Positions 4,114 to 47,485 are shown, counted from the stretch's first letter. The stretch is DNA of 64,000 nucleotides from a virus (IMGVR_UViG_3300007640_000027); one strand, 5' to 3'. Translations and numbers: made by a program. The notes: a model not told the origin generated them from the sequence alone.

Positions 4114-7100
4114 TTATACATCTTCAAATGAAGCACCTGTTGGTGTGATCAAGAATTCAATATCAATAAATTCTAATGCTCTTGTTGGTTTGATATAAAT
4201 CTTACCTGTTAGAGTATTTGAATCAAGATCTTCAGGTGTGTCTGTTACTACAACTCTAAAGTCAATAAGACCTCTGTCACGTCTGATGTTTTCCAAGATT
4301 GGATTAACTGAATCCAAGAATTCTTGACGAACCTGTTGATCATTTTGATCAAACAATAGACGTACAGCAACCGCTGAAATCAACTTACGTGCTTGTAATA
4401 ACAATCTTCTCACGTTAATTCTATCAAGTGCTGATTCTCTAACTTGAAGAGTTTTGTTACCCCAAATTACAGTTCCCACATCAGAGAATGTTGCAATTGG
4501 GTTAATTCTTCCTTTATAAAGAATATCACGATCTTCTTGTGTGAGTTTCTTTCTTGCTTTCACTGAATTCACAAGACCACGAGTGTAACCCGCTGAAGCG
4601 AACCAAGGGAATGCGATGTTATCCGTCAACGCCAAGTTTCTTACAACTTCAGCTGTCGGTGGAATATAAACTTGTGTGTTATTAACACTGTCTCTTGTAA
4701 GAACCCAAGGATAATACGTTGCCGTATAGTTTGAGTCAATACCTGTTTCATCTAAATTATCTACTGATTCTTCAGGATAAATGAAATCGGTTGTGAAACT
4801 TCTTGTGTTATTAACAAACATATTGTAATCAGGTGTAGTACAGATATAAACTGAATCAGCACGATCTGTTTCAATCATATCAATTGCACTTTCAACCAAG
4901 TTTGAGTTATTAACATAATCTATACCAGGTGTTACAAACAAGTTGATGTTAACCGCTTCAGGGTTCGCAAATGTTGATTGACCCCATAAGTAAGCATAAT
5001 AATCGGTGTTTGCCCATCTTTGTTTGTCTGGTCCCACGATTTGTTTGAATGCACCCCATCCTGTTGCGTTTGAATAATTTACAGAAGTTGCTGCACCTTT
5101 AAGATAACCTGTATTACCTAATGTAAATGAATCTAAGTTTGTTCTATATTCTCTGTAAATATCCCAACCATCAAAACCACCTGAAGGTGCGATTGTGAAT
5201 TTACGAGCAGATAAACTGAAATATGGGTTATCATTGGTTGATGGATCATTTCTGAATTCTGCAACACCAACCTCAAATTGTGATTGACCTGATGTAATAT
5301 AATTTGAAGGAACTGTAACTACGGTAGCACCTGAATCCATATGGAAACCTTTTGTAAGGTAAGCCCAAGGTGATGATTCTAATGCTTGACCTAAGTTAGT
5401 TGGATTTTGTTTTCCTTTATATTGGAAGAAATCAACATCAATTCCAACTGTATTTGAAACACCCAAATAAGTTCTACGAACTCTATCACCTGCACTTCTT
5501 GTAACATTGTCACCTGAAGCGGTACCAAATGGTGGGTTAAATAAAACTTCACCCGGTGTGTTATATTTTGTTTTATATAATAAATGTGGAGACTTGATTG
5601 AGTTGGACTCATATCTTCTCGTTAAATATCCTCTGAAACCACAAGGTAATGCATCTGTCGGTGCGTCCTCGCTCATTTCCAACATAATAAATGATGATCT
5701 CAATTGATATTCTCCGTTTGAAGTACCCACTTTTTTAGCAACGAAACCATTTTGATTTGGATCTAACGTACAGTTTGTGAATTTTTCTAACACAAATGGA
5801 TTCGCATCCGTATCAAAGAAATCTCTAACAATAATATCAAAAGTTAAGTTTTGAAATGACATATTCACGATTGAAATCTTAACTTGTTGATTCGCTGAAT
5901 TACCATCAGAAATCAATACAAATTTAAATAAGTCATATACTTCATTACCACGCAATTCTGAAACCACATATGGAGTTTCAGGTGTTTGGTAACGATCCAA
6001 ATACCAACCAATTGATGTATTAGTTGCATTATCATTTCTTGCAGAAGGAAGATCAATTAATGTGCAATTTAAACCACGAATCTTACCTTCACGGTATCCA
6101 TAATTTAATAAGTTATAATATGCTTCTTCAACAAATAAAGGAATTTCAGTTCTTGGTTTTGCAAAATTACTCTGACCAAATACTTTGGTAATATAATTTG
6201 TATTAGCCAATGAGAATGAAGTTTCAAATTCAAATGTGTTAGAATCTTTTGTGATACCTGAAATTTTAAATGTATCAAAAGGATTAGAAGTAACTCCCGA
6301 ATACACACCTGAACAGATCATTTGAACATCGGTTAATCCTGATACTTCATATATTGGTCCATCACCTGTACCGTAATCACTAATACCTCTTGAACGTAAA
6401 GTTGCAATTACCATATCATTGTAATCACTAATAGGTGTTCCCGAATAGTTGGTTACATATATAACTGCAGTACCTGAATAAGATCCAGCACCTGTTGAAG
6501 TTAAACCTGTTGTTACCATACCAAAACCAACACCTGTGTATTGACTTGAGTTACTTGGGAACATCGCATAATACCAAGGATCATTTTCTGGTGCAGTGAA
6601 ATCTGCAACATCAGTTGTGATACCATCAACTCCAAATGTTTCACTGAAGCCTGTATATGAAGACGAAGCACCTGTTACTGAACTAAATGTAGATGCCGAT
6701 ACGGTACCCCAAAACTGTGCAGTAGCACCTGAAGTCGCCACATCATTAATCTCACCATTAAAGTGAGCGATAAAATCATCTTCCAATGAAGACTCACCAC
6801 CACTGAATGTAGTATAAGGAAGTGAGAATACCGATGAAATTGATGCTGGTAAATTTTGATTGAAAATTGAAATGGTCGTACTATCACCTGTTACCCCTGA
6901 AAAATCTACACTATATACTGTAGCAGGAGCACTAGTTACGGTAAGACCTGATGAATCCAAATTACCAACTGTGGTAATTGACCACGAAGGACCTGCATCA
7001 TATCCTGAAAGACCCAATACTCTTGTTACGAATAATTGGTTAGATTGTTGAAGATACGCCTTTGCAATGTAGGCTGCTTCGTATTTAGGAATCTGTGTGT

Positions 7101-7305
7101 TCACAAATTTTGCAGGGTTTGTACCACCAAAAATTGTTTGGAATTCATCATAATTTGAGATGAAAATTGGTTCAAATGCCGGACCCGATAAAGTTTCTCC
7201 GACCAACCCTAAGGTTGTAACCCCGACGCTTTGTGCCACAAAACTTAAGTCTCTTTCTGATGTATAAACACCCGGTGAGACAAATACTTTGTTTGATGTC
7301 GCCAT
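4114..7305 (-). CDS. Contractile tail sheath protein (T4 gp18-like) with large S/T/G-rich insertions
   Basis: SPGVYTSERDLS N-terminus; PWFASAGYTRG, RINPI, WGNKTL, LDRINVRRLL, IKPTRALEFI C-terminal motifs. Confidence 0.95.
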   Translation of the reverse strand: MATSNKVFVSPGVYTSERDLSFVAQSVGVTTLGLVGETLSGPAFEPIFISNYDEFQTIFGGTNPAKFVNTQIPKYEAAYIAKAYLQQSNQLFVTRVLGLSGYDAGPSWSITTVGNLDSSGLTVTSAPATVYSVDFSGVTGDSTTISIFNQNLPASISSVFSLPYTTFSGGESSLEDDFIAHFNGEINDVATSGATAQFWGTVSASTFSSVTGASSSYTGFSETFGVDGITTDVADFTAPENDPWYYAMFPSNSSQYTGVGFGMVTTGLTSTGAGSYSGTAVIYVTNYSGTPISDYNDMVIATLRSRGISDYGTGDGPIYEVSGLTDVQMICSGVYSGVTSNPFDTFKISGITKDSNTFEFETSFSLANTNYITKVFGQSNFAKPRTEIPLFVEEAYYNLLNYGYREGKIRGLNCTLIDLPSARNDNATNTSIGWYLDRYQTPETPYVVSELRGNEVYDLFKFVLISDGNSANQQVKISIVNMSFQNLTFDIIVRDFFDTDANPFVLEKFTNCTLDPNQNGFVAKKVGTSNGEYQLRSSFIMLEMSEDAPTDALPCGFRGYLTRRYESNSIKSPHLLYKTKYNTPGEVLFNPPFGTASGDNVTRSAGDRVRRTYLGVSNTVGIDVDFFQYKGKQNPTNLGQALESSPWAYLTKGFHMDSGATVVTVPSNYITSGQSQFEVGVAEFRNDPSTNDNPYFSLSARKFTIAPSGGFDGWDIYREYRTNLDSFTLGNTGYLKGAATSVNYSNATGWGAFKQIVGPDKQRWANTDYYAYLWGQSTFANPEAVNINLFVTPGIDYVNNSNLVESAIDMIETDRADSVYICTTPDYNMFVNNTRSFTTDFIYPEESVDNLDETGIDSNYTATYYPWVLTRDSVNNTQVYIPPTAEVVRNLALTDNIAFPWFASAGYTRGLVNSVKARKKLTQEDRDILYKGRINPIATFSDVGTVIWGNKTLQVRESALDRINVRRLLLQARKLISAVAVRLLFDQNDQQVRQEFLDSVNPILENIRRDRGLIDFRVVVTDTPEDLDSNTLTGKIYIKPTRALEFIDIEFLITPTGASFEDV

Positions 7306-8627: not shown

Positions 8628-8652
8628 TAACAATAAATACTAAAGTATAGAA

Positions 8653-16916: not shown

Positions 16917-16933
16917 TAATATTTGTTTTTTCC

Positions 16934-18458: not shown

Positions 18459-20513
18459 TTATACATTCGGATTATTATCAACAATGTTAAATCCGAAATC
18501 ACATTCAATTTCGTTGGCAATAAAGTCAAAGTCACAAGCCACGGTTTCCAATGAGAAGTTGAAGAAACAACCCAATAAACACGGATAACATTCAGGACAC
18601 CAATAATCATATAAGTCAAACCTGTCCTTTAATAATCTCGCGTTATGTTGAATCTGCGGTGTACTTAATGGTTCCACATACATTCTGAATTGTGAAATAC
18701 CACCCATAAATGTCCCACCAAAATTTTGTTCCAAAAGAATATCGGTCGTCAAACCAGATAAACTGGTACCTGATAATGTTTCATTTGGCATACTCTCAGG
18801 ATCCTGAATATATGGTCCTTCCAAAGCAGAACAACCACTAAACATCAAACTTTCTCTTAACCCTTGAGTACCACCACCCCAACTGATGTTAAACGGAACA
18901 CCCAATTGTTTTTCCTTCTGAGTATTGAGTTCTCTTGGAATAATCTCCTCAAAATCTTCAATAACCATAAACAGATAACCGTTTACGTATAGTTTCAATA
19001 ATCCCTTTCTTTTATCTCTTTCTCTTAACCACTTGCGGTTTAATTCCACAATGTTTTCCTTCTTTTCTTTGGTTGAACCTGGATGTGTCTGTGGTGGCAT
19101 AATGAGATTATATGCAGCACCATTTATCGCAGAAGGATATAACTGTTCCCGAATATCACCCAATCCACCCCAATTCAATAAATCACACCCCTCCAAACTC
19201 TGATATCTTTCAAACACGGCAGTTATCATAACCCATCTTTCCTCAGTGTTTGCTGTCACACAAATAGGGTTATTGTAATTACAATCATCATAAATTCCAC
19301 GAGTGGAACAAATTTCATTAACACAATAACCTGATGAATATGTTAAACCAGTGGTCTCACAACTTCCCGTTGTTACACAATCACCAGTTAATTTTAAATA
19401 TTTCACACAAAGTTGGGGATTTTTGGGGTCACCCTCAAACTTTAAAGACATTGCATTTGAAAACACATCTTTTCCTGGATCAACAGGTGGATTTTCCACC
19501 GTTGTATTATAACCACCACAAGGACCAAGATTATGTTTTATGGTTGTACCCGTGGTTGGAAATACGGTTAAACAATCTGAGTTGGTTACACCAGTGTTTG
19601 CACATGCACAAGTTTTAATACAATTTGTTAATCCTGATGTTACACGGTTATAGGTCCAACCTGACGCATCGCCTGATATATCAATATTAAAATCACACGT
19701 AAATGTTTCGGTTGTTTGAACGTCACCCGATGCTGGATGGTAATACTTGTTTTCGGCTCTCGTTCCAAAGAAAAAGAACGTATTCGCATTATCAGGATAA
19801 ACATCATTTAAATAAACTTCAGAAGGTTGAATTTCATATTCTTCTCTTTGACGAGGTTTAAGAAGAAACTCCGCAGACCAACCTTTATTTACCCTTTCAG
19901 GAAAAACTTCATAATCATACCCGAATAACTTATAAAACCCCTGATAAAAACCACCATATAATTCATTGTAATAACCAACAGTTTCACCACTTTTGGAAAC
20001 TATATTATATATGGTTTTTGAATTACCTGAAAATCTATGGTTTGGCCAATCGGCATAACTGGTAACAGGAAACATTTTCATTCTCCTATCAAAATAATGG
20101 GGATTAAATGTTTCACCAGTATTAATACCCATCGTGAAAGTTAAAGTTTCACCAGTCATCTTATTGTATAATCCGTTGTCCGTCCCCGTTAAACCAATAT
20201 CACATAACGTGCTTGCAGTTAAACAAGTGAGATCCACATTGTCAGGATTATAATAATTCTTTGATACAACAGGATTACCTGAATAATGAACATTCCATAA
20301 TAAAGTCATTTGTTGCGCAGAATCAGATGATGATAAATCCATATTGATCGGCAACCTGTTTCCGTCATTTTCGGCGATTAAATTGGTTGAAAATACAACT
20401 TCTTCATCATAATCACGTTCATCCGACACCAAAGTTAAATCAAAATAACTGGAATCATCAAGACGGAGATCATACCTGTTAAAATAGTAGTTGTTGATAT
20501 TCTGACTCGCCAT
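18459..20513 (-). CDS. Cys/Thr/Gly-rich virion protein with LamG/concanavalin-like features
   Basis: LKLYVNG and F.GGISQFRMY..PLS..QI LamG-like motifs; 23 Cys by hand count. Confidence 0.55.
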   Translation of the reverse strand: MASQNINNYYFNRYDLRLDDSSYFDLTLVSDERDYDEEVVFSTNLIAENDGNRLPINMDLSSSDSAQQMTLLWNVHYSGNPVVSKNYYNPDNVDLTCLTASTLCDIGLTGTDNGLYNKMTGETLTFTMGINTGETFNPHYFDRRMKMFPVTSYADWPNHRFSGNSKTIYNIVSKSGETVGYYNELYGGFYQGFYKLFGYDYEVFPERVNKGWSAEFLLKPRQREEYEIQPSEVYLNDVYPDNANTFFFFGTRAENKYYHPASGDVQTTETFTCDFNIDISGDASGWTYNRVTSGLTNCIKTCACANTGVTNSDCLTVFPTTGTTIKHNLGPCGGYNTTVENPPVDPGKDVFSNAMSLKFEGDPKNPQLCVKYLKLTGDCVTTGSCETTGLTYSSGYCVNEICSTRGIYDDCNYNNPICVTANTEERWVMITAVFERYQSLEGCDLLNWGGLGDIREQLYPSAINGAAYNLIMPPQTHPGSTKEKKENIVELNRKWLRERDKRKGLLKLYVNGYLFMVIEDFEEIIPRELNTQKEKQLGVPFNISWGGGTQGLRESLMFSGCSALEGPYIQDPESMPNETLSGTSLSGLTTDILLEQNFGGTFMGGISQFRMYVEPLSTPQIQHNARLLKDRFDLYDYWCPECYPCLLGCFFNFSLETVACDFDFIANEIECDFGFNIVDNNPNV

Positions 20514-23139: not shown

Positions 23140-24348
23140 ATGAGTAAAATTAATGTATTATGTCTGCCCTCAGACCGTAGCGGAGTCGGAAAGTTCCGTT
23201 CTGTAGAACCTCACATTTTCTTACAAAACAAGTATCCTGATGATTTTCACGTGGATATTGACTATGAACCAAAAATCAATGATGATAACTATTGGAAACA
23301 ATACGATATCGTACATTTTCATAGACAGATAGGTAAAGATTTTTTAAAATCACCTATGATTATTGAAAAACTCAATAAGATGGGTATTGTAACCATTATG
23401 GACTTAGATGACTATTGGTTACCAGGACCTGAACATCCTGCACACTCTTTGGTCAAGCAAGAAAAAATAGATCAACATATCAAAAACAATCTGAAAGTTG
23501 CAGGTCACGTAACCACAACTACTTCAGTATATGCGGATTTAATTAAAAAGTTAAATCCAAATGTTTACGTATTACCAAACTCAATTAACCCTGATGAAAG
23601 CCAATTTAAGGCAGAAACTTTACCATCAGACAAACTTCGTTTTGGTTGGTTAGGTGGTTCTTCACACTTAAAAGATTTGGAATTATTAAAAGGTACGGTT
23701 AATAAACTTTCAAGTATGAAAGATCAGTTTGAAATGTACATTTGTGGTTTTGACTTACGAGGAACTGTAACTGAGATTAACCCTCAAACAGGTGAGAAGA
23801 AACAAAGACCAATCAAACCAACAGAAACCGTTTGGGCAAGATATGAAGAATTCTTCACGGACAATTATAAAATGATTGACGAAGATTACAAAAAATTCTT
23901 GATGACTTTTCAAGAAACAGAATATCCCAATGCAAACTTTTACCATAGAGTATGGACCAAACCTGTTACATCATATGCAAAAAATTATTCAAGATTTGAT
24001 GTATCTTTGGCACCAATTAAGGATAATACATTTAACCGAGCAAAATCACAACTTAAAGTTATTGAAGCAGGTTTTTACAAAAAAGCATTAATCGCATCAG
24101 ATGTGGGCCCTTATACAATTGATTTGAAACATGCATTAGATAATGGAAAATTCACCAATGGAAACGCATTATTGGTAGATAAAAACCGAAATCACGGTGA
24201 TTGGGCAAAATATATGAAGAAATTAATTCAGAACCCATCTTGGGCTGAAGATCTAGGAGAAAGACTTTATGAAACCGTAAAAGATACGTACAATTTAAAT
24301 ACAGTAACAAAAACACGAGCAGAACTTTATAAAACATTAGCAAAATGA
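23140..24348 (+). CDS. Glycosyltransferase (GT-B, GT4-like)
   Basis: DLDDYW, GWLGGSSH..DL, DVSLAPI...FN..KS.LK.IEAG. Confidence 0.85.
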   Translation: MSKINVLCLPSDRSGVGKFRSVEPHIFLQNKYPDDFHVDIDYEPKINDDNYWKQYDIVHFHRQIGKDFLKSPMIIEKLNKMGIVTIMDLDDYWLPGPEHPAHSLVKQEKIDQHIKNNLKVAGHVTTTTSVYADLIKKLNPNVYVLPNSINPDESQFKAETLPSDKLRFGWLGGSSHLKDLELLKGTVNKLSSMKDQFEMYICGFDLRGTVTEINPQTGEKKQRPIKPTETVWARYEEFFTDNYKMIDEDYKKFLMTFQETEYPNANFYHRVWTKPVTSYAKNYSRFDVSLAPIKDNTFNRAKSQLKVIEAGFYKKALIASDVGPYTIDLKHALDNGKFTNGNALLVDKNRNHGDWAKYMKKLIQNPSWAEDLGERLYETVKDTYNLNTVTKTRAELYKTLAK

Positions 24349-27691: not shown

Positions 27692-28513
27692 GTGAAAATT
27701 GAAGCATTTGACGAATTTGGCTACATTTTGTGGTATTACGCACCAGTAGCTTATAATAGTTTTTTAAAAGGAGAATTAGAGTACACTAAAAGTAAAATAG
27801 GCACTAAACCTGTTTTTTATTTTTCTGAAAATCATTCAGAAGAGAATAAACATTTTGATCCACCTATTTTAGCAAAAATATTACATCCTGAAGAACATAA
27901 TACTTCGTGTTATACACTTAAAGGTCCAAAATTTATTAATAATAATTGGACTCCTCCACCTTATAATGAAGTATATAAAAATGATAAATTTGTTTATGAT
28001 AAACCAATATTAACAATTCACAATAAAAACACTAAGGAATGGATGTCTCACCCACATAATTACTTTGATTCTGTTACATTAGACAAAATGTTTTCTATGT
28101 TAAAACATAAATTTCAAATAGTGTATTTTAGACCTCCTGATAACTCAGAAAAATTTAAATTACAAAAAGATAAACATCAAAACTCTGTAGATATTGGAGA
28201 TAAAGAAGTTTTAACTAAACATCCTGAAGTTATTGATATTGAAAATTTGTTATTAGAAACAAATAAAATTTACAACGAAGTTCAATTTATGATATTAGCT
28301 AACTCAGATCATCATATCTCACCCGCAGGTGATGCAGTAATACCAGCATATTTTGGTGGTGATCTTTTTATATATAATTGTCCTAATTGTACCTCAGCAA
28401 ATAGAGAAGTTTGGAGAACCGGATCTTGGATGGAAAAGTTATCGGGATCTAAAATTTTTGGTCACAATAATTATGACGAGTTGTTAAATAACATAACTGA
28501 AAAATGGTTATAG
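27692..28513 (+). CDS. Hypothetical glycan-modification protein (GT-like)
   Basis: EFGY.L N-terminus, W.PPPY, HNK..EW; lies inside the sugar locus. Confidence 0.45.
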   Translation: MKIEAFDEFGYILWYYAPVAYNSFLKGELEYTKSKIGTKPVFYFSENHSEENKHFDPPILAKILHPEEHNTSCYTLKGPKFINNNWTPPPYNEVYKNDKFVYDKPILTIHNKNTKEWMSHPHNYFDSVTLDKMFSMLKHKFQIVYFRPPDNSEKFKLQKDKHQNSVDIGDKEVLTKHPEVIDIENLLLETNKIYNEVQFMILANSDHHISPAGDAVIPAYFGGDLFIYNCPNCTSANREVWRTGSWMEKLSGSKIFGHNNYDELLNNITEKWL

Positions 28514-28587
28514 AACTTTTAAATTAAAAATGTATTTAATAATACATATTTTATATAAAATGATTAATTTTTTAAAAAATTAAAATT

Positions 28588-29769
28588 ATGAAAAAAATAG
28601 ACTTATTTAAAGTTTTTATGTCACCTACCGCAGCTGAAGAAGTGGGTAAAGTTTTAAACAGTGGTTACATAGGTCAAGGACCAAAAGTAGATGAATTTGA
28701 AACAATATTAAAACAAAGATTTAACCACGATTATATTTCTACTGTAAATGCAGGAACATCTGCCCTACATTTAGCACTTCATTTATTAAAAAAGCCTTCA
28801 ATAAATCAATTGACTAAATTTGGTAGTTTAATGTATGAATCAAAATGGCCAGGTTTAGAAGATGGAGATGAAGTTTTAGCTACACCGATGACTTGTACCG
28901 CCTCAAACTGGCCTATATTGGCAAATAATCTTAAAATAAAATGGGTAGATATTGACCCAACTACTTTAAATATGGATTTAGATGATTTAGCCAGAAAAAT
29001 TACACCAAAAACAAAAGTAATAATGTTGGTACATTGGGGTGGTTATCCGAATGACTTAGAAAAAGTTAAACAAATTCAAGAAAGAGCATATAGTATGTAT
29101 GGTTTTAAACCCGCTATTATTGAAGATGGTGCACACTCTTTTGGTTCAGAATACAAAGGTAAACTTATCGGTACACATGGTAATTTAACAATGTTTTCTT
29201 TACAAGCAATTAAACATATAACATCTGTAGATGGTGGGTTGCTTTTTTCACCACATAAAAAATTAAATGACAGGGCAAGGTTAATTAGGTGGTATGGTAT
29301 TGACAGAGACAGTGATAGAAAAGATTTTAGATGTGAGGCCGATATTGAGGAATGGGGTTTTAAGTTTCATATGAATGATGTTTGCGCTACGGTTGGTATT
29401 GAAAATTTAAAACATGCTGATGAAATTATTAGTAAGCATAGAGAAAATGCCAAATACTACGATGAAAACTTAAAAGAGGTAAATGGTGTTACATTGTTAA
29501 AAAGAGAAGATGGTTTTGATTCTGCATTTTGGATATACTCAATGTTAGTTGAAGATAGAGATGGTTTTTATAAACATATGGAAAAACACAATATTTCAGT
29601 ATCTCAAGTTCATGAAAGAAATGATAAACACACTTGCGTTAGAGAATATGTTAGTAATCTACCTAATTTAGATAGAACAATAAACAAAATTGTTTCAATA
29701 CCTGTTGGTTGGTGGGTAACACCTGAAGAAAGAGAATATATTGTTGAGACAATAAAAAAAGGTTGGTAA
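28588..29769 (+). CDS. DegT/DnrJ/EryC1/StrS PLP-dependent sugar aminotransferase
   Basis: NAGTSALHLAL, VHWGG, IEDGAHSFG, FSLQAIKHIT..DGG. Confidence 0.93.
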   Translation: MKKIDLFKVFMSPTAAEEVGKVLNSGYIGQGPKVDEFETILKQRFNHDYISTVNAGTSALHLALHLLKKPSINQLTKFGSLMYESKWPGLEDGDEVLATPMTCTASNWPILANNLKIKWVDIDPTTLNMDLDDLARKITPKTKVIMLVHWGGYPNDLEKVKQIQERAYSMYGFKPAIIEDGAHSFGSEYKGKLIGTHGNLTMFSLQAIKHITSVDGGLLFSPHKKLNDRARLIRWYGIDRDSDRKDFRCEADIEEWGFKFHMNDVCATVGIENLKHADEIISKHRENAKYYDENLKEVNGVTLLKREDGFDSAFWIYSMLVEDRDGFYKHMEKHNISVSQVHERNDKHTCVREYVSNLPNLDRTINKIVSIPVGWWVTPEEREYIVETIKKGW

Positions 29770-30191
29770 TGAAATTGAGACCATTAACCATAAATGATAT
29801 TGATTTCTTACTTGAAGTTAGAAATGATGATTCTACACGTAGATTTTTAGAAAATGATTCTATTTTTACGTATGATGAAAGTTTAAATTGGTTTAATACT
29901 ACAAAACCTAATTGGTTTATTATTGAAGTCAATAACGAAAGAGTTGGTTATATTAGAACTAATGGTGATGAAGTTGGTTGTGATATTCATCCTAATTTTC
30001 GCAGAAAAGGTTATGCTCGTCAAGCTTATTTAGAATACTTAAAAGATAAATCATACGCCACTTTATGGGTTTTTGAAAATAACTTTGCAAAAAACTTATA
30101 TAAATCTTTAGGTTTTATAGAAACAGGTGAAGTTAAAATCATTAGAAATCAAAAGTATATATTTATGAAATATGAAAGAAGAAATAGTTAA
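29763..30191 (+). CDS. GNAT N-acetyltransferase (PseH-like)
   Basis: LLEVRND, IHPNFRRKGYA, N.AKNLYKSLGF. Confidence 0.8.
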   Translation: MVMKLRPLTINDIDFLLEVRNDDSTRRFLENDSIFTYDESLNWFNTTKPNWFIIEVNNERVGYIRTNGDEVGCDIHPNFRRKGYARQAYLEYLKDKSYATLWVFENNFAKNLYKSLGFIETGEVKIIRNQKYIFMKYERRNS

Positions 30192-30801
30192 TAAAATTTT
30201 TATTGGTGGTTTTGGTGGTACGGGAAGTAGAGTTATTACTGAAATATTTGAAGCGTTTGGATACTATATCGGAAGAGAAATTGGTGGAAATTCATTAGAT
30301 TTTGGTAAAGGTAAATTTGTAGGTGCATTTGACAGATCTTGGAGAGTTAAAAATTTTAATGAAGTTATTAAGTTTATTAAAGATAATCTAAAAAACTCAG
30401 ATCGTTTTGCCATTAAACATGGTCATTTTATGTTTATTAATGATGTACTTAAAGAAAATTTTCCCGGATGTAAAACAGTATATATTATGAGACATCCAAT
30501 AGATATGGCGGTTAAAAATCAATATAAACCTCATTGTAAATATAGTAATATTAAGTGTAATGATTTAGACGGTAAAATAAAATATTATATAAATGAATCT
30601 ATTAAATCCTGTGAACAATCAGATTTAATTATAAAATATGAAGATCTTTGTGTTGATTTAGAAAATCAACTAAAAATAATTAAGCAATTTATTGGTGATA
30701 ATACTTTATTTTTACCTAAAATAAACATAAAACCTTCATCATCAACAGGTAAACAAGTACACTTATATGATAAGTACGATGTTTCAATGTTAGGGTATTA
30801 A
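30172..30801 (+). CDS. Sulfotransferase-like protein
   Basis: IFIGGFGGTGSRV PAPS-loop-like motif, MRHPID, IKYEDL. Confidence 0.65.
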   Translation: MKEEIVNKIFIGGFGGTGSRVITEIFEAFGYYIGREIGGNSLDFGKGKFVGAFDRSWRVKNFNEVIKFIKDNLKNSDRFAIKHGHFMFINDVLKENFPGCKTVYIMRHPIDMAVKNQYKPHCKYSNIKCNDLDGKIKYYINESIKSCEQSDLIIKYEDLCVDLENQLKIIKQFIGDNTLFLPKINIKPSSSTGKQVHLYDKYDVSMLGY

Positions 30802-30812
30802 ATTCGTAAATT

Positions 30813-31490
30813 ATGAATATAAAAAATCATCCAATAGAATTTTATATAGATAAGTTAAATAAAAAAGAACATTTTTCATTTACCAGATGGGGAGATGGAG
30901 AGTGGTTTTGTGCTATGGGAGTACAGGGTCAAAATTGTGACTCACATATTTACTTTCCAGAATTAAAAGATGGTCTTAATTTAGCATTAAAAAATAATAA
31001 AGGTTATTATAAGGCAATATGGAATTTAGATCATGGACAAATAAAAAATATCTTAAATAGATTACTACCTTTTTTAAATGATAATAAAATATCTGTAGAT
31101 TGGGTAAATGCCGGAATATGGGAAGATGTTACTCTTAATGGTAAATTAAAAACTTTAATAGATTCTTTAGAAAAAAGAAATTTTGTAATAGTGTCAAACG
31201 ATAACTTAAAAAACTTAAACATCAAATATTGTGATTTTATTACCGTACCTTCACGTAATTGTTTTTTAGATAAAGAAAGGATTAAACTCGACATGATTAA
31301 AATGACTGAAAAATATAAAGATGTAGTATTTGGTTTATCGGCATCTATGGCCACAAATGTAATTGTAGACGAACTTTACGATGTTATCGGAGATAGATGT
31401 ACTATGATTGATTTTGGATCTATATGGGATCCATTTGTTGGTAAACAAACTAGAAGTTATCACAGACAATATAAAACCAATAAAATATGA
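30813..31490 (+). CDS. GT-D fold (DUF1792-like) glycosyltransferase
   Basis: FSFTRWGDGE and C-terminal IDFGSIWD motifs. Confidence 0.65.
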   Translation: MNIKNHPIEFYIDKLNKKEHFSFTRWGDGEWFCAMGVQGQNCDSHIYFPELKDGLNLALKNNKGYYKAIWNLDHGQIKNILNRLLPFLNDNKISVDWVNAGIWEDVTLNGKLKTLIDSLEKRNFVIVSNDNLKNLNIKYCDFITVPSRNCFLDKERIKLDMIKMTEKYKDVVFGLSASMATNVIVDELYDVIGDRCTMIDFGSIWDPFVGKQTRSYHRQYKTNKI

Positions 31491-32203
31491 TTCATTGTAG
31501 ACCATATGGTGGAATTTCAAATAGAATGAAATGTATAATTTCATGTATTGCAGAGTATGATGAAATTAATTTAATATGGAAAATACCTGAAACCGGTGGT
31601 GGTGTTAGATGTGAATTTAATGACATTTATAAAAATATCTATAAAGGACATTCAAGCAAAATAGTAAATAGTTGTAAATTTATACATGAAGAAATGAATA
31701 CCTTAGAAGATGAAGAAAAAAACACATTATCTAATGAACTTAAACAAAAATACTTAAATGTAATAAAAACATTACAACCTGTTGATTATATTTTAGAAAG
31801 AGTTAAAGAAGAAAAAGATAAATTAGGTGATTTTAATACTGTTAGTGTAAGAACTTTCAGAAGTTTTGAGCAAGAGTATGAATCTTGGGGTAAATTTTTT
31901 AAAATAGAAAATTTATTTAAAATTATGGATAATTTAGAAGGTAAAATTCTATTAACTTGTGACGATAATGATGTTACAGACGTAATAAAAAATAAATATG
32001 ATGTTTATACCACACCAAAAAGAACTAAATTCGGAGATTTTACTACTGTAGAAGGTATGCAAGACATATTAATAGATCAATATTTAGGAGGTATGGCAAA
32101 AAATTTATATGGTACAAGAATGAGTAGTTTTAGTGAAATGCAATGGTGGTTGGGACTTTGTCAGTCAAATTATATACAAATGAAATTACATGAAAAAAAT
32201 TAA
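31487..32203 (+). CDS. O-fucosyltransferase/NodZ-like glycosyltransferase
   Basis: GGISNRM, VSVRT, LTCDD, ID.YL...GT..SSFS. Confidence 0.6.
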   Translation: MIHCRPYGGISNRMKCIISCIAEYDEINLIWKIPETGGGVRCEFNDIYKNIYKGHSSKIVNSCKFIHEEMNTLEDEEKNTLSNELKQKYLNVIKTLQPVDYILERVKEEKDKLGDFNTVSVRTFRSFEQEYESWGKFFKIENLFKIMDNLEGKILLTCDDNDVTDVIKNKYDVYTTPKRTKFGDFTTVEGMQDILIDQYLGGMAKNLYGTRMSSFSEMQWWLGLCQSNYIQMKLHEKN

Positions 32204-32360
32204 TAAACTTTTCAGAATATTAAAACTACGATTTTTGTATGGTTATATGAATTGTGAAAATTGTGGTAAATTTACAAATAAAATCACATCTATCCCTTAT
32301 ATTGAAGCGGGTTTTTTAGTTTGTCACAGATGTGATAAAATTGATCTAAATAATGAATAA
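32190..32360 (+). CDS. Small zinc-ribbon protein (56 aa)
   Basis: Hand translation MKKINKLFRILKLRFLYGYMNCENCGKFTNKITSIPYIEAGFLVCHRCDKIDLNNE*; CxxC...CxxC; overlaps both neighbours. Confidence 0.5.
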   Translation: MKKINKLFRILKLRFLYGYMNCENCGKFTNKITSIPYIEAGFLVCHRCDKIDLNNE

Positions 32361-32748
32361 CGTTTGGGTAAACGGTACTTTTGATGTTTTACACGTAGGA
32401 CATATTCGTTTATTAAAATTAGCTAGTACTTTTGGGAAAGTTCGTGTCGGTATAGATTCGGATGATAGGATTAAAAAATTAAAGGGACCTGAGAGACCTT
32501 TTAATACGATGAACGTAAGAAAAGAGATGTTGGAGTCTTTAGTTTATGTTGATAGTGTCGTAATATTTAATGATGATTATAGTTTAGTTAACGAAATAAA
32601 AAATTGGAATTCTAAAACTATGGTCATTGGATCGGATTATAAAAACAAAAAAATAATTGGTGGTGATTTGTTTGAGAATATTATTTATTTTGACAGACTT
32701 TCGGACTACTCAACCACAAAAATTTTGGAGTTTTATAAGAATGAATAA
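32353..32748 (+). CDS. Cytidylyl/adenylyltransferase (RfaE domain II / TagD-like)
   Basis: GTFDVLHVGH, GIDSD, KG.ERP, GSDY, YSTT. Confidence 0.88.
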   Translation: MNNVWVNGTFDVLHVGHIRLLKLASTFGKVRVGIDSDDRIKKLKGPERPFNTMNVRKEMLESLVYVDSVVIFNDDYSLVNEIKNWNSKTMVIGSDYKNKKIIGGDLFENIIYFDRLSDYSTTKILEFYKNE

Positions 32749-34395: not shown

Positions 34396-35460
34396 ATGGA
34401 TAAGGAAACATTATTAAAAGTTGAAAAATCAATTCAAAATTTGAATGATAAAAAATCAAGAATATATTTCTTGGTTCAAGACACAAAAGGAAATGCCAGA
34501 GCATCAATAAGATACATTTATCAGATGGCAAAGGTATTAAAAGATAACGGGTATAATGCAATTATTCTTCACGAAAAAAATGATTATGAAGGAGTTTCTT
34601 CTTGGTTAAGTGAGGGATATGAAGGCATTCCACATGAATCAATTGAAGAACAGAATCTACAGATTTCGCCTGAAGATTATGTAATCATTCCTGAACTTTA
34701 TGGTCACGTTTTGGAACAACTATCTCAAATCCCATCAGGAAAAATCGTATTGTGTCAAGCGTATGATTATATGTTGGAGACTTTGCAACCAGGAACTTCT
34801 TGGAGTCAATATGGTTTTTTGAAGTCAATCACAACATCTGAACAACAACAGAACTATGTTGAAGGAATAATGAAGAACGTGACGTTTGATATTATTCCTC
34901 CTGTATTATCACCTGTATTTAAAGAAAAAGACAAACCGTCAAAACCAATAATTTCTATTCATACTCGTGATCAGAGAGACACTATGAAGATTATTAAATC
35001 ATTTTATTTAAAATACCCACAATTCCGTTGGATCACATTCCGTGATATGAGAGGTATTAGTGAGGAACAATTTTCAGAGTATTTAAGAGACTCTTTCGTT
35101 TCTGTATGGGTAGATGATCTTTCAGGATTTGGAACCTTTCCTTTGGAAAGTATGGCGTCTAAAACACCTGTTATTGGTAAGGTACCAAACATTAAACCTG
35201 AATGGATGAATGATGATAATGGTATTTGGACTTTCAATGTAAATGAAATGGTTGATATCGTTGCTGATTTTATTCAAAATTGGTTGGAAGATAACATTTC
35301 TGAAAAGTTATATGAACAAGGTTTGGAGACTGCAAAGAAATATCAAAATATGGAAGATTTTCAGAATATAGTACTTGAAACATTCAACAGATTTATTCAA
35401 GTAAGAAAAGAAAATTTTGAAACTCAATTAGAAAAATTAAAAGTTGAAACTAATGAATAA
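34396..35460 (+). CDS. Glycosyltransferase (GT-B)
   Basis: DYVIIPE, SGFGTFPLESMAS.TPVIG. Confidence 0.75.
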   Translation: MDKETLLKVEKSIQNLNDKKSRIYFLVQDTKGNARASIRYIYQMAKVLKDNGYNAIILHEKNDYEGVSSWLSEGYEGIPHESIEEQNLQISPEDYVIIPELYGHVLEQLSQIPSGKIVLCQAYDYMLETLQPGTSWSQYGFLKSITTSEQQQNYVEGIMKNVTFDIIPPVLSPVFKEKDKPSKPIISIHTRDQRDTMKIIKSFYLKYPQFRWITFRDMRGISEEQFSEYLRDSFVSVWVDDLSGFGTFPLESMASKTPVIGKVPNIKPEWMNDDNGIWTFNVNEMVDIVADFIQNWLEDNISEKLYEQGLETAKKYQNMEDFQNIVLETFNRFIQVRKENFETQLEKLKVETNE

Positions 35461-36265
35461 TATGGAAAATATAGACGTTTCGGTAATTTTGCCGATTGAA
35501 AGCACAAAACATAAAAAATTTGACACTTTTTTTAGAACTTTTATTACATCAGTTCATAATCAACAGTTATTACCAAATGAACTTGTTATTGTTCATTCAG
35601 GTGAAGAAAATTTGGTTAGTTATCTAAATGAATTTGAATTTAGCGGTTTAACTGTTAACATTATTCAAAATGATGGACCAACTGACTTTTCAAGTCAAGT
35701 TAATTTGGGTGTTGAAAAATCAAATAGTAAGTGGGTATCAATTGCTGAATTTGATGATGAATATTCATCAATTTGGTTTAAGAATGTAAAAAGATATATG
35801 ACCGCATATCCTGAAGTTGGTGGATTTTTACCATTGGTTGTGGATGTGGATGAAAAAGGTGTATTTGCGGGTTTTACAAATGAAGCAACATTTGCGGCGA
35901 ATATGAATTCTGAAATTGGATATTTGACTAACGAAGTATTACTAAACTATCAAAACTTTCAAAGTAGTGGAATGGTTATTTTAAAAGAATTGTTCCAAGA
36001 GTTTGGAGGTTTTAAACCCTCAATGAAACTAACATTTGTTTATGAGTTCCTATTACGAATGACGTATAATTCTAATAAAATTATGACGATACCTAGAATA
36101 GGTTACAAACACACGAATATGAGAGAAGGATCCATTTTTTGGAATTACAAAAATGGTGAGAATAAGGTGACCCAAGACGAGGTTTCATTTTGGATTGAAT
36201 CGGCAAAAAAAGAACATTTCTTTAAAGAAGATAGGAACATAAAATACGAAGTTCAGCATGATTAA
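35444..36265 (+). CDS. Glycosyltransferase (GT2)
   Basis: VSVILPI, N.GV, EFDD, FGGFK...YEFLLR. Confidence 0.8.
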   Translation: MKLMNNMENIDVSVILPIESTKHKKFDTFFRTFITSVHNQQLLPNELVIVHSGEENLVSYLNEFEFSGLTVNIIQNDGPTDFSSQVNLGVEKSNSKWVSIAEFDDEYSSIWFKNVKRYMTAYPEVGGFLPLVVDVDEKGVFAGFTNEATFAANMNSEIGYLTNEVLLNYQNFQSSGMVILKELFQEFGGFKPSMKLTFVYEFLLRMTYNSNKIMTIPRIGYKHTNMREGSIFWNYKNGENKVTQDEVSFWIESAKKEHFFKEDRNIKYEVQHD

Positions 36266-37029
36266 TGTTCTTGGAAAAATTTACAGGATCTTCTGAAAAT
36301 TTATCAGAAGATCCAAAACCAAAAAAAAGAGGCAGAAAAGCTAAACAGGCAAATTATTTTGACACGCGTGAAGAAGAAGCGGTTAAAATGTTTTTGTCTG
36401 CTGACACTTTTCAAGAAAAAAACGAAATTTATAACGAATATCTTAGACATCCGTTAGATAAGATGATATCTTCAATCATTAGAAGGTATAAACTTTATCG
36501 TAAGGATATGGATTTTCGTGAAATACATAATGACACACATTCTTTTTTGATCACCAAAGTAGAAAAATTCAAACCTGAACGTAACAAAAAGGCATATTCT
36601 TATTTTGGTACCATATGTAAGAATTATTTAATGGGTCAGTTGATTAAGGATCAAAAGGAACAAAATAGAAAAATATCATATGAGGACATTACAAGTAAGA
36701 TTGAAAATCGTCCTGATATGATTTATTATATTGAACACGAAAAAATTGATGCCGCGGATGTTATAATACGATTTACTAAAGAATTAGAACAATATATTGA
36801 GGAAACAGAATTAAACAACAATGAATTAAAATTAGGTTATGCATTGATTGACTTGTTTTCTGATTATGAAGTCATATTTCAAGGTGCAGAAAATAAAAAA
36901 TTCAACAAAAATGTAATCTTACTTTCACTAAGGGAAATGACTAATTTGAACACAAAAGAAATACGTAATTCAATGAAGAAATATAAAGATCTATATTACG
37001 AAATTGTCAAAAAGTTAAATAACCTATAA
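36265..37029 (+). CDS. Late-transcription sigma factor (T4 gp55-like)
   Basis: Sigma region 2: KF.PE...KAYSYFGTICKNYL. Confidence 0.7.
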   Translation: MFLEKFTGSSENLSEDPKPKKRGRKAKQANYFDTREEEAVKMFLSADTFQEKNEIYNEYLRHPLDKMISSIIRRYKLYRKDMDFREIHNDTHSFLITKVEKFKPERNKKAYSYFGTICKNYLMGQLIKDQKEQNRKISYEDITSKIENRPDMIYYIEHEKIDAADVIIRFTKELEQYIEETELNNNELKLGYALIDLFSDYEVIFQGAENKKFNKNVILLSLREMTNLNTKEIRNSMKKYKDLYYEIVKKLNNL

Positions 37030-41149: not shown

Positions 41150-42661
41150 ATGTCAATATATAAATCTTATTTCAATAGAAATAACACAATTGTTTATAAT
41201 TCTGATGTAAATACGGGAAGAAATCCTGTTGCTGAATTATTTTTTGGTAGCGTGGATAATTTAATCTCCCCAAAAGGATATTCTCGTTTTATTTTTGATA
41301 TTGATCTTGATGAGTTAAGAAATCGCATTTCAAACAATACCATTTCAACGGGATGTAGCAAAAACATCACACATACATTAAGAATGACCAATTCATCATC
41401 TTTTGATCAAGAATTGTTAAATAAACAATGGAGCAACGGAAGAAGACGTGCCACTTCATTTGATTTAATCTTATTTAGAATACCAAAGGTATCAGGAACA
41501 ACTGGTCAAGGTCAAATATGGGATGAAGGTGTGGGTTATGATTATTATGATGCAAATACCACCAACTCATTTGATTCCATGTTCTATAGACAATCACCCC
41601 CAAATGATAAGTCTTATTCAACTCGTCCTTCCAATTGGTTTAATTCTCAAACCATATCAGGATGGACCACACCAGGAATATATGATAATACAAACTCTTT
41701 AACGGGATCCAGTGCGGTCTTTAATTATTCAGCATTAACCATCGTGGATGTTCAACATTTTGAATTCGGAAATGAAGATATTGAATTTGATATGACCGAT
41801 GAAATTAATAACATCTTAACGGGGGCAACCACTGGAACCACAGGATGGGGTATCGCCTTTAGACCTGAAATAGAAAATATAACAGGTCTTACTGAAAATA
41901 GTTCGGTCGGGTTTTTCACAAGACATACTCAAACGTTTTATGAACCCTATTTGGAAACTAATTATGATGACTTAATTCAAGATGATAGAAATATCTTCTA
42001 TGAAACAAAACAAAATAAATTATATCTGTACTCATACGCTCAAGGTCAACCCCAAAGTTTGGATGCAAACCCAACGGTGGACCTGGTAGATATCAACGGA
42101 GACCAAATAAATGGTTTTACGGGACTTTCTACCTGTCAGGTGACTAAGGGGGTCTATGAGGTGACGATAAGCGGTCTAACAGCAACTACGGTACCTTGTA
42201 TGGTCTATGATACGTGGAAAGGTCTATCAATTAACGGAACATCCATATCTGATGTGGAAAATGAATTCGTTTTAAGACCCCTTTCTGATTTTTATCAAAT
42301 AGGATCAACCAACCAAGAACCATCATTATATGGGTTTGATTTTTATGGTCTAAAACAAGATGAAAAAATACTCGGTGGTGATATTCGCAAAGTGGGGGTT
42401 ATTGTTAAAAAAGCATATACCACAAGGGAAGTACTCAATAAAGTTGACGCATATTACCGTATTTATGTAAGAGAAGGCACAACAGAAGTTCAAGTACAAG
42501 ACTGGACTGAAATTAATAGAACACCAGACGGTCACTATTTCATATTAGATACTTCAGATAAAATACCTAATGAATATTTTGTTGACCTAAAAGTTAACAC
42601 TGATAGAGAAGTTAATACTTATAAAAGACAGATAAAGTTCCAAATAGTAGATAGAAAATGA
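41150..42661 (+). CDS. Putative virion structural protein
   Basis: T/G/S-rich, WDEG.G motif; late promoter; follows the spike gene. Confidence 0.55.
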   Translation: MSIYKSYFNRNNTIVYNSDVNTGRNPVAELFFGSVDNLISPKGYSRFIFDIDLDELRNRISNNTISTGCSKNITHTLRMTNSSSFDQELLNKQWSNGRRRATSFDLILFRIPKVSGTTGQGQIWDEGVGYDYYDANTTNSFDSMFYRQSPPNDKSYSTRPSNWFNSQTISGWTTPGIYDNTNSLTGSSAVFNYSALTIVDVQHFEFGNEDIEFDMTDEINNILTGATTGTTGWGIAFRPEIENITGLTENSSVGFFTRHTQTFYEPYLETNYDDLIQDDRNIFYETKQNKLYLYSYAQGQPQSLDANPTVDLVDINGDQINGFTGLSTCQVTKGVYEVTISGLTATTVPCMVYDTWKGLSINGTSISDVENEFVLRPLSDFYQIGSTNQEPSLYGFDFYGLKQDEKILGGDIRKVGVIVKKAYTTREVLNKVDAYYRIYVREGTTEVQVQDWTEINRTPDGHYFILDTSDKIPNEYFVDLKVNTDREVNTYKRQIKFQIVDRK

Positions 42662-45403: not shown

Positions 45404-45421
45404 TATGTATATTAATTTTAT

Positions 45422-45450: not shown

Positions 45451-45464
45451 AACATTATAAAGGT

Positions 45465-45690: not shown

Positions 45691-45703
45691 AACTGAAAAT
45701 TAA

Positions 45704-47485
45704 TTATCTTAATTCTCTTAAGTCAAATGTACGTACACCATCTACAACAATTCTACCATAGAAACGGTTGTTAACCATTTTCTTAGCGTATCTTGTCATA
45801 ATACCTTTGATAGGTGTAAAGTTGAATGGGTTGTACATTGTTGGTGTCAATTGTAATGGTACATATGGTGCGTAAACGTATCCTGTATCCAATAAAGAAG
45901 AACCTTTATGTCCTAACAATACTGTGTTAGGTGGGAAGTAAGGATCACGATATACTTGATATCTACCTGATAAAGTACCAACTCTTTCAATACCCATGTT
46001 GTACTGATCTTGATCTGGTGCTGCGTTTGATACGTGGAAGTATTCCAAGTCATCAAAGATCGCTGAAATTTCAGAAGAAACTACGATCCAGTTAGCACCA
46101 CCTCTAAGTGTTGATTTATGGATTTGAGCCGAGATTTGGTTGATCGCAGTGATCAATGTTTGGTTCCAGTCTTTTTGGTTATAGTTAACTGAACCGTTAG
46201 ATACTCTCTTCCATCCGTTGTAATCCCAACGTAATGTCCAAGCTGCACCTTTTCTCAAGTCTCTTAAGATTTCACGGTCAATTTCCGCTGCCACTTGTTC
46301 TGATAATAAAGCTGTTAATTCAGCTTCAGCATCAATGTTATGGAATGCAGAAACGTCTTGTGCCAATTCTGGTGACCATTGTGCTCTTAATTTTCTTTCT
46401 GTTACTGATACAGTAACTGACTCAAGATCAAATGATACTTCACCAATTCTGTCTTCAAATTCTAATTCTTCATATCTTCTCCAATGTGCTGTAAATGTTG
46501 CACCTGAACCGATAGTTGAACCTGTGTATCCGTCTAATGAAGTTGAACCGATAGCTGCAGGAGTTGAAGTATCTACTGACAAGTAGATGATACCGTCAGC
46601 GTCACAAATGTTATCGTAATAACCACCTGGACCTGAACCTGGGAATGCAGCTTGTGATTGTGTTCCATACTCTACAATACCTTTACCGTATTTTTGAGTT
46701 ACTACGTTAAAGTTCCAATATTGAGCAGGAGTATCTGAATCTACTTCTAATGAAGCTAAGAAATCTTCAGTATCCATTTCTTGACCTTCAGGTCCGATTA
46801 ATTTACCAGCACCAGCATTAGAGAAACCTGTTAATTGGAAAATTAATTCCTTAACATTTGCACTCGCAACTGAACCAGTACCTCCTGTAGCGAGAGATAA
46901 TGCCTCAGCTAATGTAGTTACAACTAAATCACTACCTGACCATTTAACTGGTATGATATTTGATGTTAATGCAGTGTAAGCACCTTTTGAATAGTCAAAT
47001 AATCCAGCAGGATCAGAGTTTGGTGCTGAACCTTCGTAGAAACGGTCATACAAGTTTTTACCTGAACCGTATCCTTGTCTTGGATCGTTTTCACCAGCAT
47101 TTACTGCCTCAGGAGAACCGATTGGAGCGTAGTGCTCACCGTTGTTACGGTTCTGAATTTTAGGTACAAAGTAGAACAATTTACCGATTGGTAAGTTCAT
47201 CGCTTGTACAGATACGATATCATTAGCTAATAATTTAGAGAAAACTCTTCTAATGATAGGGAAAACAACTGTTTCAAATGAACCTGAGTTATCGGAAGCA
47301 GATGCTTCGTTGATTAGGTGAGAAGCTTGGTTTTCATATAATTGTGCCATGTTCTCTTTTACGTGTCCTTTAAGACCTTCTAGGAATCCTAATTTATCCC
47401 ATTTGTTAATTGTGTCTTCTTTGATAACTTTTAAATGTTTTAATCCAATGTTACCAACAAGACCTGATTCTAATAATGCTCCCAT
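45704..47485 (-). CDS. Major capsid protein (T4 gp23-like)
   Basis: VSVQAMNLP.G, RKLRAQWSPELAQD...H.IDAEAEL, EIDREI, YAPYVPL, GIMTRYA. Confidence 0.97.
   Translation of the reverse strand: MGALLESGLVGNIGLKHLKVIKEDTINKWDKLGFLEGLKGHVKENMAQLYENQASHLINEASASDNSGSFETVVFPIIRRVFSKLLANDIVSVQAMNLPIGKLFYFVPKIQNRNNGEHYAPIGSPEAVNAGENDPRQGYGSGKNLYDRFYEGSAPNSDPAGLFDYSKGAYTALTSNIIPVKWSGSDLVVTTLAEALSLATGGTGSVASANVKELIFQLTGFSNAGAGKLIGPEGQEMDTEDFLASLEVDSDTPAQYWNFNVVTQKYGKGIVEYGTQSQAAFPGSGPGGYYDNICDADGIIYLSVDTSTPAAIGSTSLDGYTGSTIGSGATFTAHWRRYEELEFEDRIGEVSFDLESVTVSVTERKLRAQWSPELAQDVSAFHNIDAEAELTALLSEQVAAEIDREILRDLRKGAAWTLRWDYNGWKRVSNGSVNYNQKDWNQTLITAINQISAQIHKSTLRGGANWIVVSSEISAIFDDLEYFHVSNAAPDQDQYNMGIERVGTLSGRYQVYRDPYFPPNTVLLGHKGSSLLDTGYVYAPYVPLQLTPTMYNPFNFTPIKGIMTRYAKKMVNNRFYGRIVVDGVRTFDLRELR

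Follow-up and report, generated by a model that had tools for sequence, protein, structure and literature searches.

A clade-specific [Ser/Thr]-Gly-x-Thr motif in surface-type virion proteins of an aquatic jumbo phage, a candidate tag for O-glycosylation

Phage particles are usually regarded as bare protein. To our knowledge, mycobacteriophages are the only worked example of phages that glycosylate themselves, and the glycans on their C-terminal tails reportedly blunt antibody recognition. Here we analyze a 64,000-nucleotide stretch of viral DNA, IMGVR_UViG_3300007640_000027 (hereafter the window), in which a four-residue motif, [ST]G.T (Ser or Thr, Gly, any residue, Thr), recurs in four proteins: the tail sheath, the major capsid protein, and two orphans of 684 and 503 amino acids (aa). 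Our main finding is that this motif is genuine and specific, that its signal belongs to the protein, and that its excess is a property of one phage clade. In mycobacteriophages, virion O-glycosylation is carried out by phage-encoded glycosyltransferases (GTs), with glycans on C-terminal extensions of capsid and tail-tube subunits (Freeman et al. 2023, as summarised in PMC12619734). This is the closest published system. It resembles the present one in that a tailed phage has its own soluble GTs with capsid and tail proteins as proposed cytoplasmic targets and a coated particle as the outcome, here a predicted one. Site architecture and enzymes differ: the candidate sites in the window are internal loops and insertions of many proteins, with none in the tail tube, a four-residue tag is proposed, the host belongs to another phylum, the phage is a T4-like jumbo myovirus, and the two GTs that were compared by tblastn have no match in GenBank phages.

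Bacterial systems offer other points of comparison. General O-glycosylation in Bacteroidota is periplasmic, with en bloc transfer of the glycan to the sequon D-[S/T]-[A/I/L/V/M/T]. It shares with our proposal a short sequon that directs O-glycosylation of many unrelated proteins, and it operates in the host phylum, but signal peptides are absent from the phage proteins, virions are assembled in the cytoplasm, and the sequon is not enriched here (D[ST][AILVMT], 7 observed versus 11.0 expected in the four proteins), which bears out an earlier note on this DNA that had set the motif apart from the host sequon. Cytoplasmic O-glycosylation by soluble GTs is known for serine-rich-repeat adhesins (GtfA/B), flagellins (Maf/GmaR), autotransporters (the heptosyltransferase BAHT) and the collagen-like G-x-T repeats of BclA/BclA3. 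These systems likewise place nucleotide sugars on protein Ser/Thr before export or assembly, and the PseC/PseH-like and RfaE-domain-II-like genes of the window are of types that serve flagellin and autotransporter glycans; no homology of the phage GTs to those enzymes, however, was detected in the sequence searches made, and in contrast to the collagen-like G-x-T type (BclA/BclA3-SgtA) a leading Ser/Thr is required here, bare G-x-T being unenriched. Finally, for the S-layer protein of Kuenenia stuttgartiensis, which is heavily O-glycosylated, a G-[T/S]-X motif was proposed because the pattern recurs in its glycopeptides (PMC5088730). It too is a short Gly-containing O-glycosylation motif inferred from recurrence, but there Gly precedes the acceptor, the protein belongs to the cell envelope, and the motif itself is just proposed (PMC5088730). 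Literature searches found no publication describing an [ST]GxT motif.

Open reading frames (ORFs) were called independently, and sites were counted by regular expression as [ST]G.T (strict) or [ST]G.[ST] (relaxed). The hand counts of the earlier note, which had proposed a phage-specific O-glycosylation sequon, were matched exactly: 8 strict and 13 relaxed sites in the sheath, 9 in the 684-aa protein, 6 in the 503-aa protein, 3 in the capsid (TGGT, TGST and SGAT), 2 in a 49-aa ORF and 1 in the DNA polymerase, with zero in the SNF2 helicase, terminase and portal. As a null preserving local composition, residues were shuffled inside blocks of 10, 20 or 40 aa. Pooled, the four proteins hold 26 sites where 4.4 to 5.8 are expected (standard deviation approximately 2.2, z approximately 10), so the claimed enrichment survives correction and a composition artefact is ruled out; the other 74 ORFs (17.9 k aa) hold 6 versus 5.5. 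Taken one by one, the figures are 8 versus 2.0 to 2.3 for the sheath, 9 versus 1.1 to 1.4 for the 684-aa protein, 6 versus 0.8 to 1.2 for the 503-aa protein, and 3 versus 0.6 to 0.8 for the capsid (p 0.02 to 0.03 taken alone). Across the whole window, the excess is confined to four or five proteins.

The possibility that the signal stems from post-hoc choice of the motif is answered by an unbiased scan of every pattern of type ab.c, abc or a.bc observed in the four proteins: among 6283 such tripeptide-type patterns, SG.T ranks first (15 versus 2.4, Poisson p 3.5e-8), GLT second and TG.T third. The ratio of observed to expected counts (O/E) is 5.0 for [ST]G.T, 11 for [ST]G[LVIAM]T, 2.8 for [ST]G.S and 2.4 for [ST]A.T. 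Look-alikes of similar turn-plus-strand propensity are flat ([DN]G.T 1.1, [ST]G.[VI] 0.9, reversed motif 1.0), as are the register-shifted forms ([ST]G..T 1.0, G[ST].T 0), and N-x-S/T shows no enrichment in these proteins. The general excess of G.T (41 versus 22.9) is fully explained by copies with a leading Ser/Thr; preceded by [DN], [AG], [VILM], [KREQ] or [FYW], G.T occurs at or under expectation. Codons at the sites vary synonymously and match background usage, which indicates selection on the protein rather than on a DNA word and rules out a DNA-level cause.

The carriers are unrelated to one another, as had been claimed: a common homologous module is ruled out by pairwise comparison (blastp gives E of 0.04 or higher, and hhalign no probability above 2% for any two of the four families). 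The tail sheath (4114..7305, minus strand, 1063 aa; PHROG 23 tail sheath, 4.8e-55) has its Pfam sheath C-terminal domains at residues 780-1051, and all eight strict sites fall within residues approximately 102-748, which have no counterpart in an alignment with the sheath of the nearest named phage, Flavobacterium phage immuto (capsid identity just 38%). In the gp23-type major capsid protein (45704..47485, minus strand, 593 aa; Pfam Gp23, 2.2e-72), the three strict sites, accompanied by a TGFS, lie in or at the edge of a central insertion (residues approximately 203-346 in the alignment with immuto). The earlier observation that motifs cluster in insertions thus holds for both proteins.

Neither orphan has a sequence match in Pfam, PHROG, GenBank phages or the Protein Data Bank (PDB), and both were assigned at the fold level. 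The AlphaFold2 model of the 684-aa protein (18459..20513, minus strand, nine sites; predicted template modelling score, pTM, 0.66) is a concanavalin-A-like lectin jelly roll whose strands are split by long Cys-rich loops of low confidence. Eight of the nine sites are within these loops (binomial p 0.02), and the sole site in a confidently modelled region forms a two-residue hairpin turn. The model aligns (VIA-align, Z approximately 15) with carbohydrate-binding jelly rolls and with the tailspike of cyanopodophage Pan3, the ESM Atlas lead is Laminin_G_3, and the matches of the model to clostridial toxins reflect the same common lectin fold. Within the loops, at residues approximately 280-400, invariant cysteines (C297, C301, C378, C384, C410 and others) are interleaved with motif sites; such Cys-rich loops are unusual for a product of the bacterial cytoplasm and suggest metal sites, or disulfides made after release. 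The 503-aa protein (41150..42661, plus strand, six strict and nine relaxed sites; pTM 0.65) is modelled as an N-terminal beta-sandwich followed by two C-terminal immunoglobulin (Ig)-like domains, and its fold matches in BFVD and the PDB are Ig/FN3-type phage proteins. In the model, all of its sites occupy coil that directly follows a strand or helix or leads into a strand, and predicted site contexts are mixed overall (hairpin turn, strand exits, helix C-cap).

Fold and gene context suggest that both orphans are part of the virion. For the 503-aa protein a baseplate or tail location is likely because its gene follows that of a gp5/VgrG-like spike (39587-41128). This 513-aa product has a gp5/VgrG-like motif at its start (…VVLDNNDPLRLGRI…) and an HxH near its C-terminus, and is therefore probably the baseplate central spike; its homologue in the complete relative G002 is itself motif-enriched (3 versus 0.27). 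Upstream of the spike gene, a 648-aa protein (37444-39390) has three hydrophobic segments (434-455, 520-538 and 556-575). The 49-aa ORF (60271..60420, minus strand), with sites TGCT and TGST, is probably a real small gene, since it is conserved in G002 (tblastn, 53% identity over 43 aa, E 7e-13), where one of the two sites is kept. No family match was found for the 348-aa protein at 7587-8633, previously named a tail terminator.

The window phage is an uncultured jumbo phage of Flavobacterium-like bacteria and belongs to an abundant aquatic clade, with hundreds of related contigs in IMG/VR. Two of these are complete, G002 (297 kb) and G004 (318 kb), and stand in for the window phage in whole-genome tests. 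Among non-redundant IMG/VR homologues, mean observed and expected counts are 8.8 and 1.2 for the 684-aa family (25 homologues), 5.9 and 0.84 for the 503-aa family, 4.6 and 1.6 for the sheath family, and 2.5 and 0.84 for the capsid family; nearly all remaining gene families of the window are at zero or near chance. In G002, 11 of 333 ORFs carry 90 sites versus 22 expected, and the other 322 carry 71 versus 69. The 11 include the capsid, the homologues of the 684-aa, 503-aa and spike proteins, a tail fibre of 1619 aa, and large proteins in which Hoc-like, PKD, SprB or DUF642 features are hinted at. Tube, portal, scaffold, protease and terminase, which are internal or non-virion proteins, have no motif sites. 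The G004 homologues give 5 versus 1.8 (sheath), 3 versus 0.9 (capsid), 7 versus 1.4 (684-aa protein) and 4 versus 0.4 (503-aa protein). The hydroxyl-Gly-x-hydroxyl tag is confined to approximately ten virion proteins, all of surface type and of unrelated fold.

In some relatives, fibre-like proteins encoded next to the 684-aa gene reach 39 sites versus 9.6 expected. These extra proteins of 891-1555 aa lie directly downstream of the 684-aa homologue (for example L051:13211-17875 and L049:11866-14538) and hold 16-39 motif copies in repetitive units such as LPLSGGTVTG; at this position the window holds just two small ORFs (17698-18447). A known tail-fibre repeat family as the source was rejected, as the motif-rich fibre-like proteins have no Pfam fibre-repeat match.

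The excess is a clade property and not one of phage structural proteins generally. In 29 virion proteins of phage T4, 18 sites are found versus 16 expected (sheath 0, capsid 1, Hoc 1), and immuto has 2 versus 1.7 in its sheath and 0 versus 0.65 in its capsid, which rules out a general trait of beta-rich virion proteins; immuto fibres show a mild 1.5-3x excess.

Within the clade, some sites are strongly retained: TGLT at 388 of the 684-aa protein is kept in 35 of 35 homologues, TGLT at 245 of the 503-aa protein in 53 of 55, and TGST at 321 of the capsid in 48 of 53, with x and the downstream flank hypervariable. Many others are lineage-specific. In the 684-aa family, the number of rare alignment columns is 25 for [ST]G.T versus 1 for [ST]G.[VI], 1 for [DN]G.T and 5 for the reversed motif, and in the sheath it is 26 versus 10-15 for control patterns. 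As counts are kept clade-wide, the number of sites is maintained while their positions turn over. Gly and Ala exchange frequently at the second position, and [ST]A.T is itself enriched 5-9x. The Thr at +3 changes to Ser in 17% of cases and to Val/Ile in 3% (background Thr to Val/Ile, 6%), and position -1 is hydrophobic or aromatic at 46-70% of sites versus 30-35% in the background (p 1.7e-5 in G004).

The window also encodes GTs. The earlier count of about seven GT domains comes down to five detectable ones, in four genes, all on the plus strand and all predicted soluble: a GT-B enzyme at 23140..24348 (PHROG 7162 glycosyltransferase, 1.2e-46; weak Pfam GT1 matches); a fusion of GT-A (Glyco_tranf_2_5) and GT-B (GT4) domains at 26026..27675 (Pfam 7.5e-29 and 1.3e-8); a GT-B enzyme at 34396..35460 (Actinobacillus AmGGT glucosyltransferase in the PDB, 6.5e-6; weak Pfam GT1); and a GT-A (GT2) enzyme at 35444..36265 (Pfam Glycos_transf_2, 29 bits, over cut-off), whose gene overlaps the preceding one by 17 nucleotides. 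None has a transmembrane or hydrophobic segment, and in the 23-37 kb block no ORF has a 19-residue hydrophobic window above 1.6. All four are syntenic clade core, near late and baseplate genes, with homologues in 49, 48, 62 and 62 loci, respectively, and are present in G002 and G004. A tblastn search of 50,697 GenBank phage records at E 1e-3, which covered 34396-35460 and 26026-27675, returned no match for either. The former is very strongly conserved, with 64-70% identity across clade members, and has 4400 metagenomic homologues; in this protein search for other lineages, the best 120 of the 4400 (64-98% identity) belong to the same clade throughout. The family profile of 35444-36265, run against all PDB sequences, found generic GT-A enzymes only (best 6p61, 2.8e-5; Streptococcus parasanguinis GalT1, 0.021), with no SunS or ThuS entry listed. 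The GT block is closed by a sigma-70-like gene (36265..37029, plus strand; weak TIGR02937 match, 7.6e-4; kept in 63 loci), which precedes the spike and baseplate genes and is possibly a late sigma factor co-transcribed with the GTs. Large aquatic 'moraphages', whose predicted hosts are Flavobacteriia, have four GT orthogroups in their core genome, together with dUTPase, ClpA-like ATPase, sigma factor, sheath and PolB (PMC12619734, Arch Virol 2025). The core set is all present in the window or its relatives, a match in gene content. That report leaves the role of the GTs open between DNA, serotype and virion, and does not report the motif (PMC12619734).

Between the two GT pairs lies a sugar-tailoring cassette of low GC content, 0.27-0.29 (27692..32748, plus strand), with a PseC-like DegT aminotransferase (28588-29769), a GNAT protein (29763-30191), a sulfotransferase-like ORF (30172-30801), an RfaE-domain-II/TagD-like nucleotidyltransferase (32353-32748), and ORFs without assigned family. 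Cassette homologues occur in just 2-10 of approximately 50-60 related loci, and G002 and G004, which retain the motif, lack the genes for the aminotransferase, the GNAT protein and the sulfotransferase-like product; the cassette is therefore a strain-variable add-on rather than conserved core, and looks like a swappable 'serotype' island. For the same reason, the aminotransferase, acetyltransferase and sulfotransferase can no longer be counted as part of a conserved system. The sulfotransferase identity is itself a sub-threshold Pfam match (19.8 bits versus a cut-off of 22), and a sulfated glycan is thus unsupported. Two suspected resemblances, of 30813-31490 to GT-D/DUF1792 and of 31487-32203 to fucosyltransferases, were dropped when PDB sequence searches gave no support.

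What stands of the earlier proposal is the motif, its restriction, the clade-core soluble GTs and the outgroups without excess, while the sulfated glycan and the cassette fall away. As far as sequence allows us to judge, the most economical reading is that [ST]GxT is a candidate tag for cytoplasmic, sequon-directed O-glycosylation of the virion surface, a reading to which we give a little short of an even chance. A fuller version, of which we are somewhat less confident still, is that the clade, which is distributed globally, uses a hydrophobic-[S/T]-[G/A]-x-T sequon, read by conserved cytoplasmic phage GTs, to coat every outward-facing part of the particle, with a swappable cassette diversifying the glycan. 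The tag would be a Ser or Thr, preferably preceded by a hydrophobic residue and followed by Gly (sometimes Ala), any residue and Thr, on exposed loops of outward-facing proteins: the outer domains of the sheath, the capsid insertion, the lectin-like and Ig-domain proteins and, in relatives, fibres and adhesin-like giants. During infection, one of the four soluble GTs would read it in the host cytoplasm on proteins that are folded or being assembled, and would O-glycosylate a hydroxyl, probably that of the first residue, with Ser and Thr accepted equally; the Gly would provide space, and Thr at +3 would serve as a recognition element, as in N-x-T. The remaining GT domains would then extend the glycan, and the cassette (the PseC/PseH-like amino-sugar pair, the nucleotidyltransferase and possibly the sulfotransferase) would make the outer sugars differ from strain to strain. 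Proteins as the targets of the GTs, the tag as their signal and the identity of the acceptor residue are our inferences.

This reading is favoured by the strength and narrowness of the signal, its confinement to a few proteins of unrelated fold, its place in loops and insertions and its sequon-like turnover of positions, and also by a contrast between lineages: the clade keeps both the motif and four soluble GTs that have no other assigned substrate, and T4 and immuto lack the enrichment. Every clade member has both motif and GTs, and no relative without GTs was found among those examined. Several observations nevertheless weigh on the other side. Because it is seen at the clade level only, the co-occurrence of motif and GTs amounts to a single evolutionary event. 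In G004, the more distant of the complete genomes, the signal is weaker (167 versus 154 overall). The residues at the sites of the window are conserved no better than other Ser, Thr and Gly of the same proteins, and the motif Gly is retained at 53% of homologue positions versus 81% for background Gly. Many sites fall in regions of low predicted local distance difference test (pLDDT) score, and the virion place of the 684- and 503-aa proteins derives from fold and gene context. In the searches made, the GTs showed no sequence likeness to known families of protein O-glycosyltransferases, and immuto has two GT2-family genes without motif enrichment.

Gly and Thr are residues typical of turns and strands, and the motif may instead be a clade-specific structural device that involves no modification, such as a favoured start of loops or turns in expanded beta-sandwich surface domains and fibres, the GTs being unrelated. 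We regard this as unlikely, yet as a serious competitor. The hydrophobic preference at -1, the hairpin turn at the one confidently modelled site of the 684-aa protein, the placement of the motif inside repetitive strands in the relatives' fibre-like proteins, the ordinary conservation of site residues and the mild excess in immuto fibres are all in keeping with it, but patterns of equal propensity are not enriched, whether [DN]G.T, [ST]G.[VI], reversed or shifted, and homologues of the same fold in T4 and immuto have no excess. Moreover, the four families are unrelated and their predicted local contexts mixed, the +3 Thr gives way to Ser and not to Val/Ile, new motif sites arise far oftener than control motifs, and the fibre-like proteins belong to no Pfam tail-fibre-repeat family. 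The statistics and the evolutionary behaviour that point to a recognition tag would apply equally to a tag that carries no sugar: a site of phosphorylation, acylation or ADP-ribosylation, or one where a chaperone, cement or decoration protein docks as the particle is assembled. The lack of resemblance between the GTs and known protein glycosyltransferases leaves room for this, as do the conserved 49-aa ORF and the many small late proteins of no assigned role; against it, the clade-core genes of the window include no kinase, ADP-ribosyltransferase or acyltransferase and do include the four soluble GTs without other assigned target, and a docking site would be at fixed positions, whereas motif sites shift. 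We consider a non-sugar tag improbable, the least probable of the explanations weighed here.

Improbable to nearly the same degree is that the GTs act on the DNA of the phage or on an envelope glycan of its host, as in T4 glucosylation, glycan-hypermodified DNA or seroconversion, with the motif unrelated. These two kinds of target are the ones most often documented for phage GTs (review in PMC12619734). The first two GT genes of the window adjoin a dUTPase, a 3'-5' exonuclease and a HAD phosphatase, and a swappable sugar cassette would fit escape from restriction too. The thymidylate synthase of relatives is, however, canonical and not a divergent, hydroxymethylase-like copy: ThyA of G002-G005 resembles the cellular enzymes (match at 2.9e-79), with the dUMP-specifying Asn of PFNIASY retained. 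Pfam scans of all ORFs of the GT block found GT1/GT2/GT4-type families only, and no T4 alpha- or beta-glucosyltransferase. As for ALTERNATIVES for the GTs, glycosylated hydroxymethyl bases are unlikely because of this canonical ThyA and the lack of T4 alpha/beta-GT domains; a search with Tet_JBP gave no match, but its positive control gave none either. Envelope modification of the Gtr type (membrane GtrB/GtrC with the flippase GtrA), as in seroconversion, is excluded by the absence of membrane segments, and the block has no flippase or polymerase. Either target would leave the motif unexplained.

If sequon-directed O-glycosylation is indeed the role of the motif, it would be the first such protein-glycosylation system of a phage and would add a new bacterial-type O-glycosylation sequon. 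It would provide a directly testable rule for the position of phage glycans over capsid, sheath, fibres and adhesin-like proteins, and a function for the core GTs that published genomics left open. A glycan coat might then be a common adaptation of aquatic jumbo phages, acting for example in resistance to proteases or grazing, in colloidal behaviour, or in adhesion to host surfaces or mucus, and a portable pair of tag and enzyme for cytoplasmic glyco-engineering would be possible. Were the motif purely structural, it would still be an unusual clade-specific sequence rule, missed by structure predictors.

The remaining gene content identifies the source of the window as a distant T4-like phage with a contractile tail. 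Beside the Gp23 and sheath matches given above, members of the gp23/gp20/gp17/gp18 set are a gp20-type portal (52365-54239; PHROG, 4.8e-67) and the large terminase (54284-56059; PHROG TerL, 7.4e-41), accompanied by a prohead protease (49271-49990; Peptidase_S77, 5.3e-24), the tail tube (2453-2944; PHROG, 2.1e-25) and a T4-baseplate-family protein (1583-2329). A family-B DNA polymerase (14089-16953), the SNF2 helicase, PhoH, a dUTPase-like protein and a ClpA/B-like ATPase are also encoded. A 526-aa protein (11032-12612) contains a full Fe/Mn superoxide dismutase, with both domains, at residues 50-239, followed by approximately 290 aa without family match; it is kept in 59 related loci. At the end of the window, a small protein with two UvrB/UvrC (UVR) motifs (62168-62617) adjoins the ClpA/B-like AAA+ ATPase (62833-63999), which is encoded in divergent orientation and also has a UVR motif; the two resemble a phage-encoded Clp chaperone/adaptor pair.

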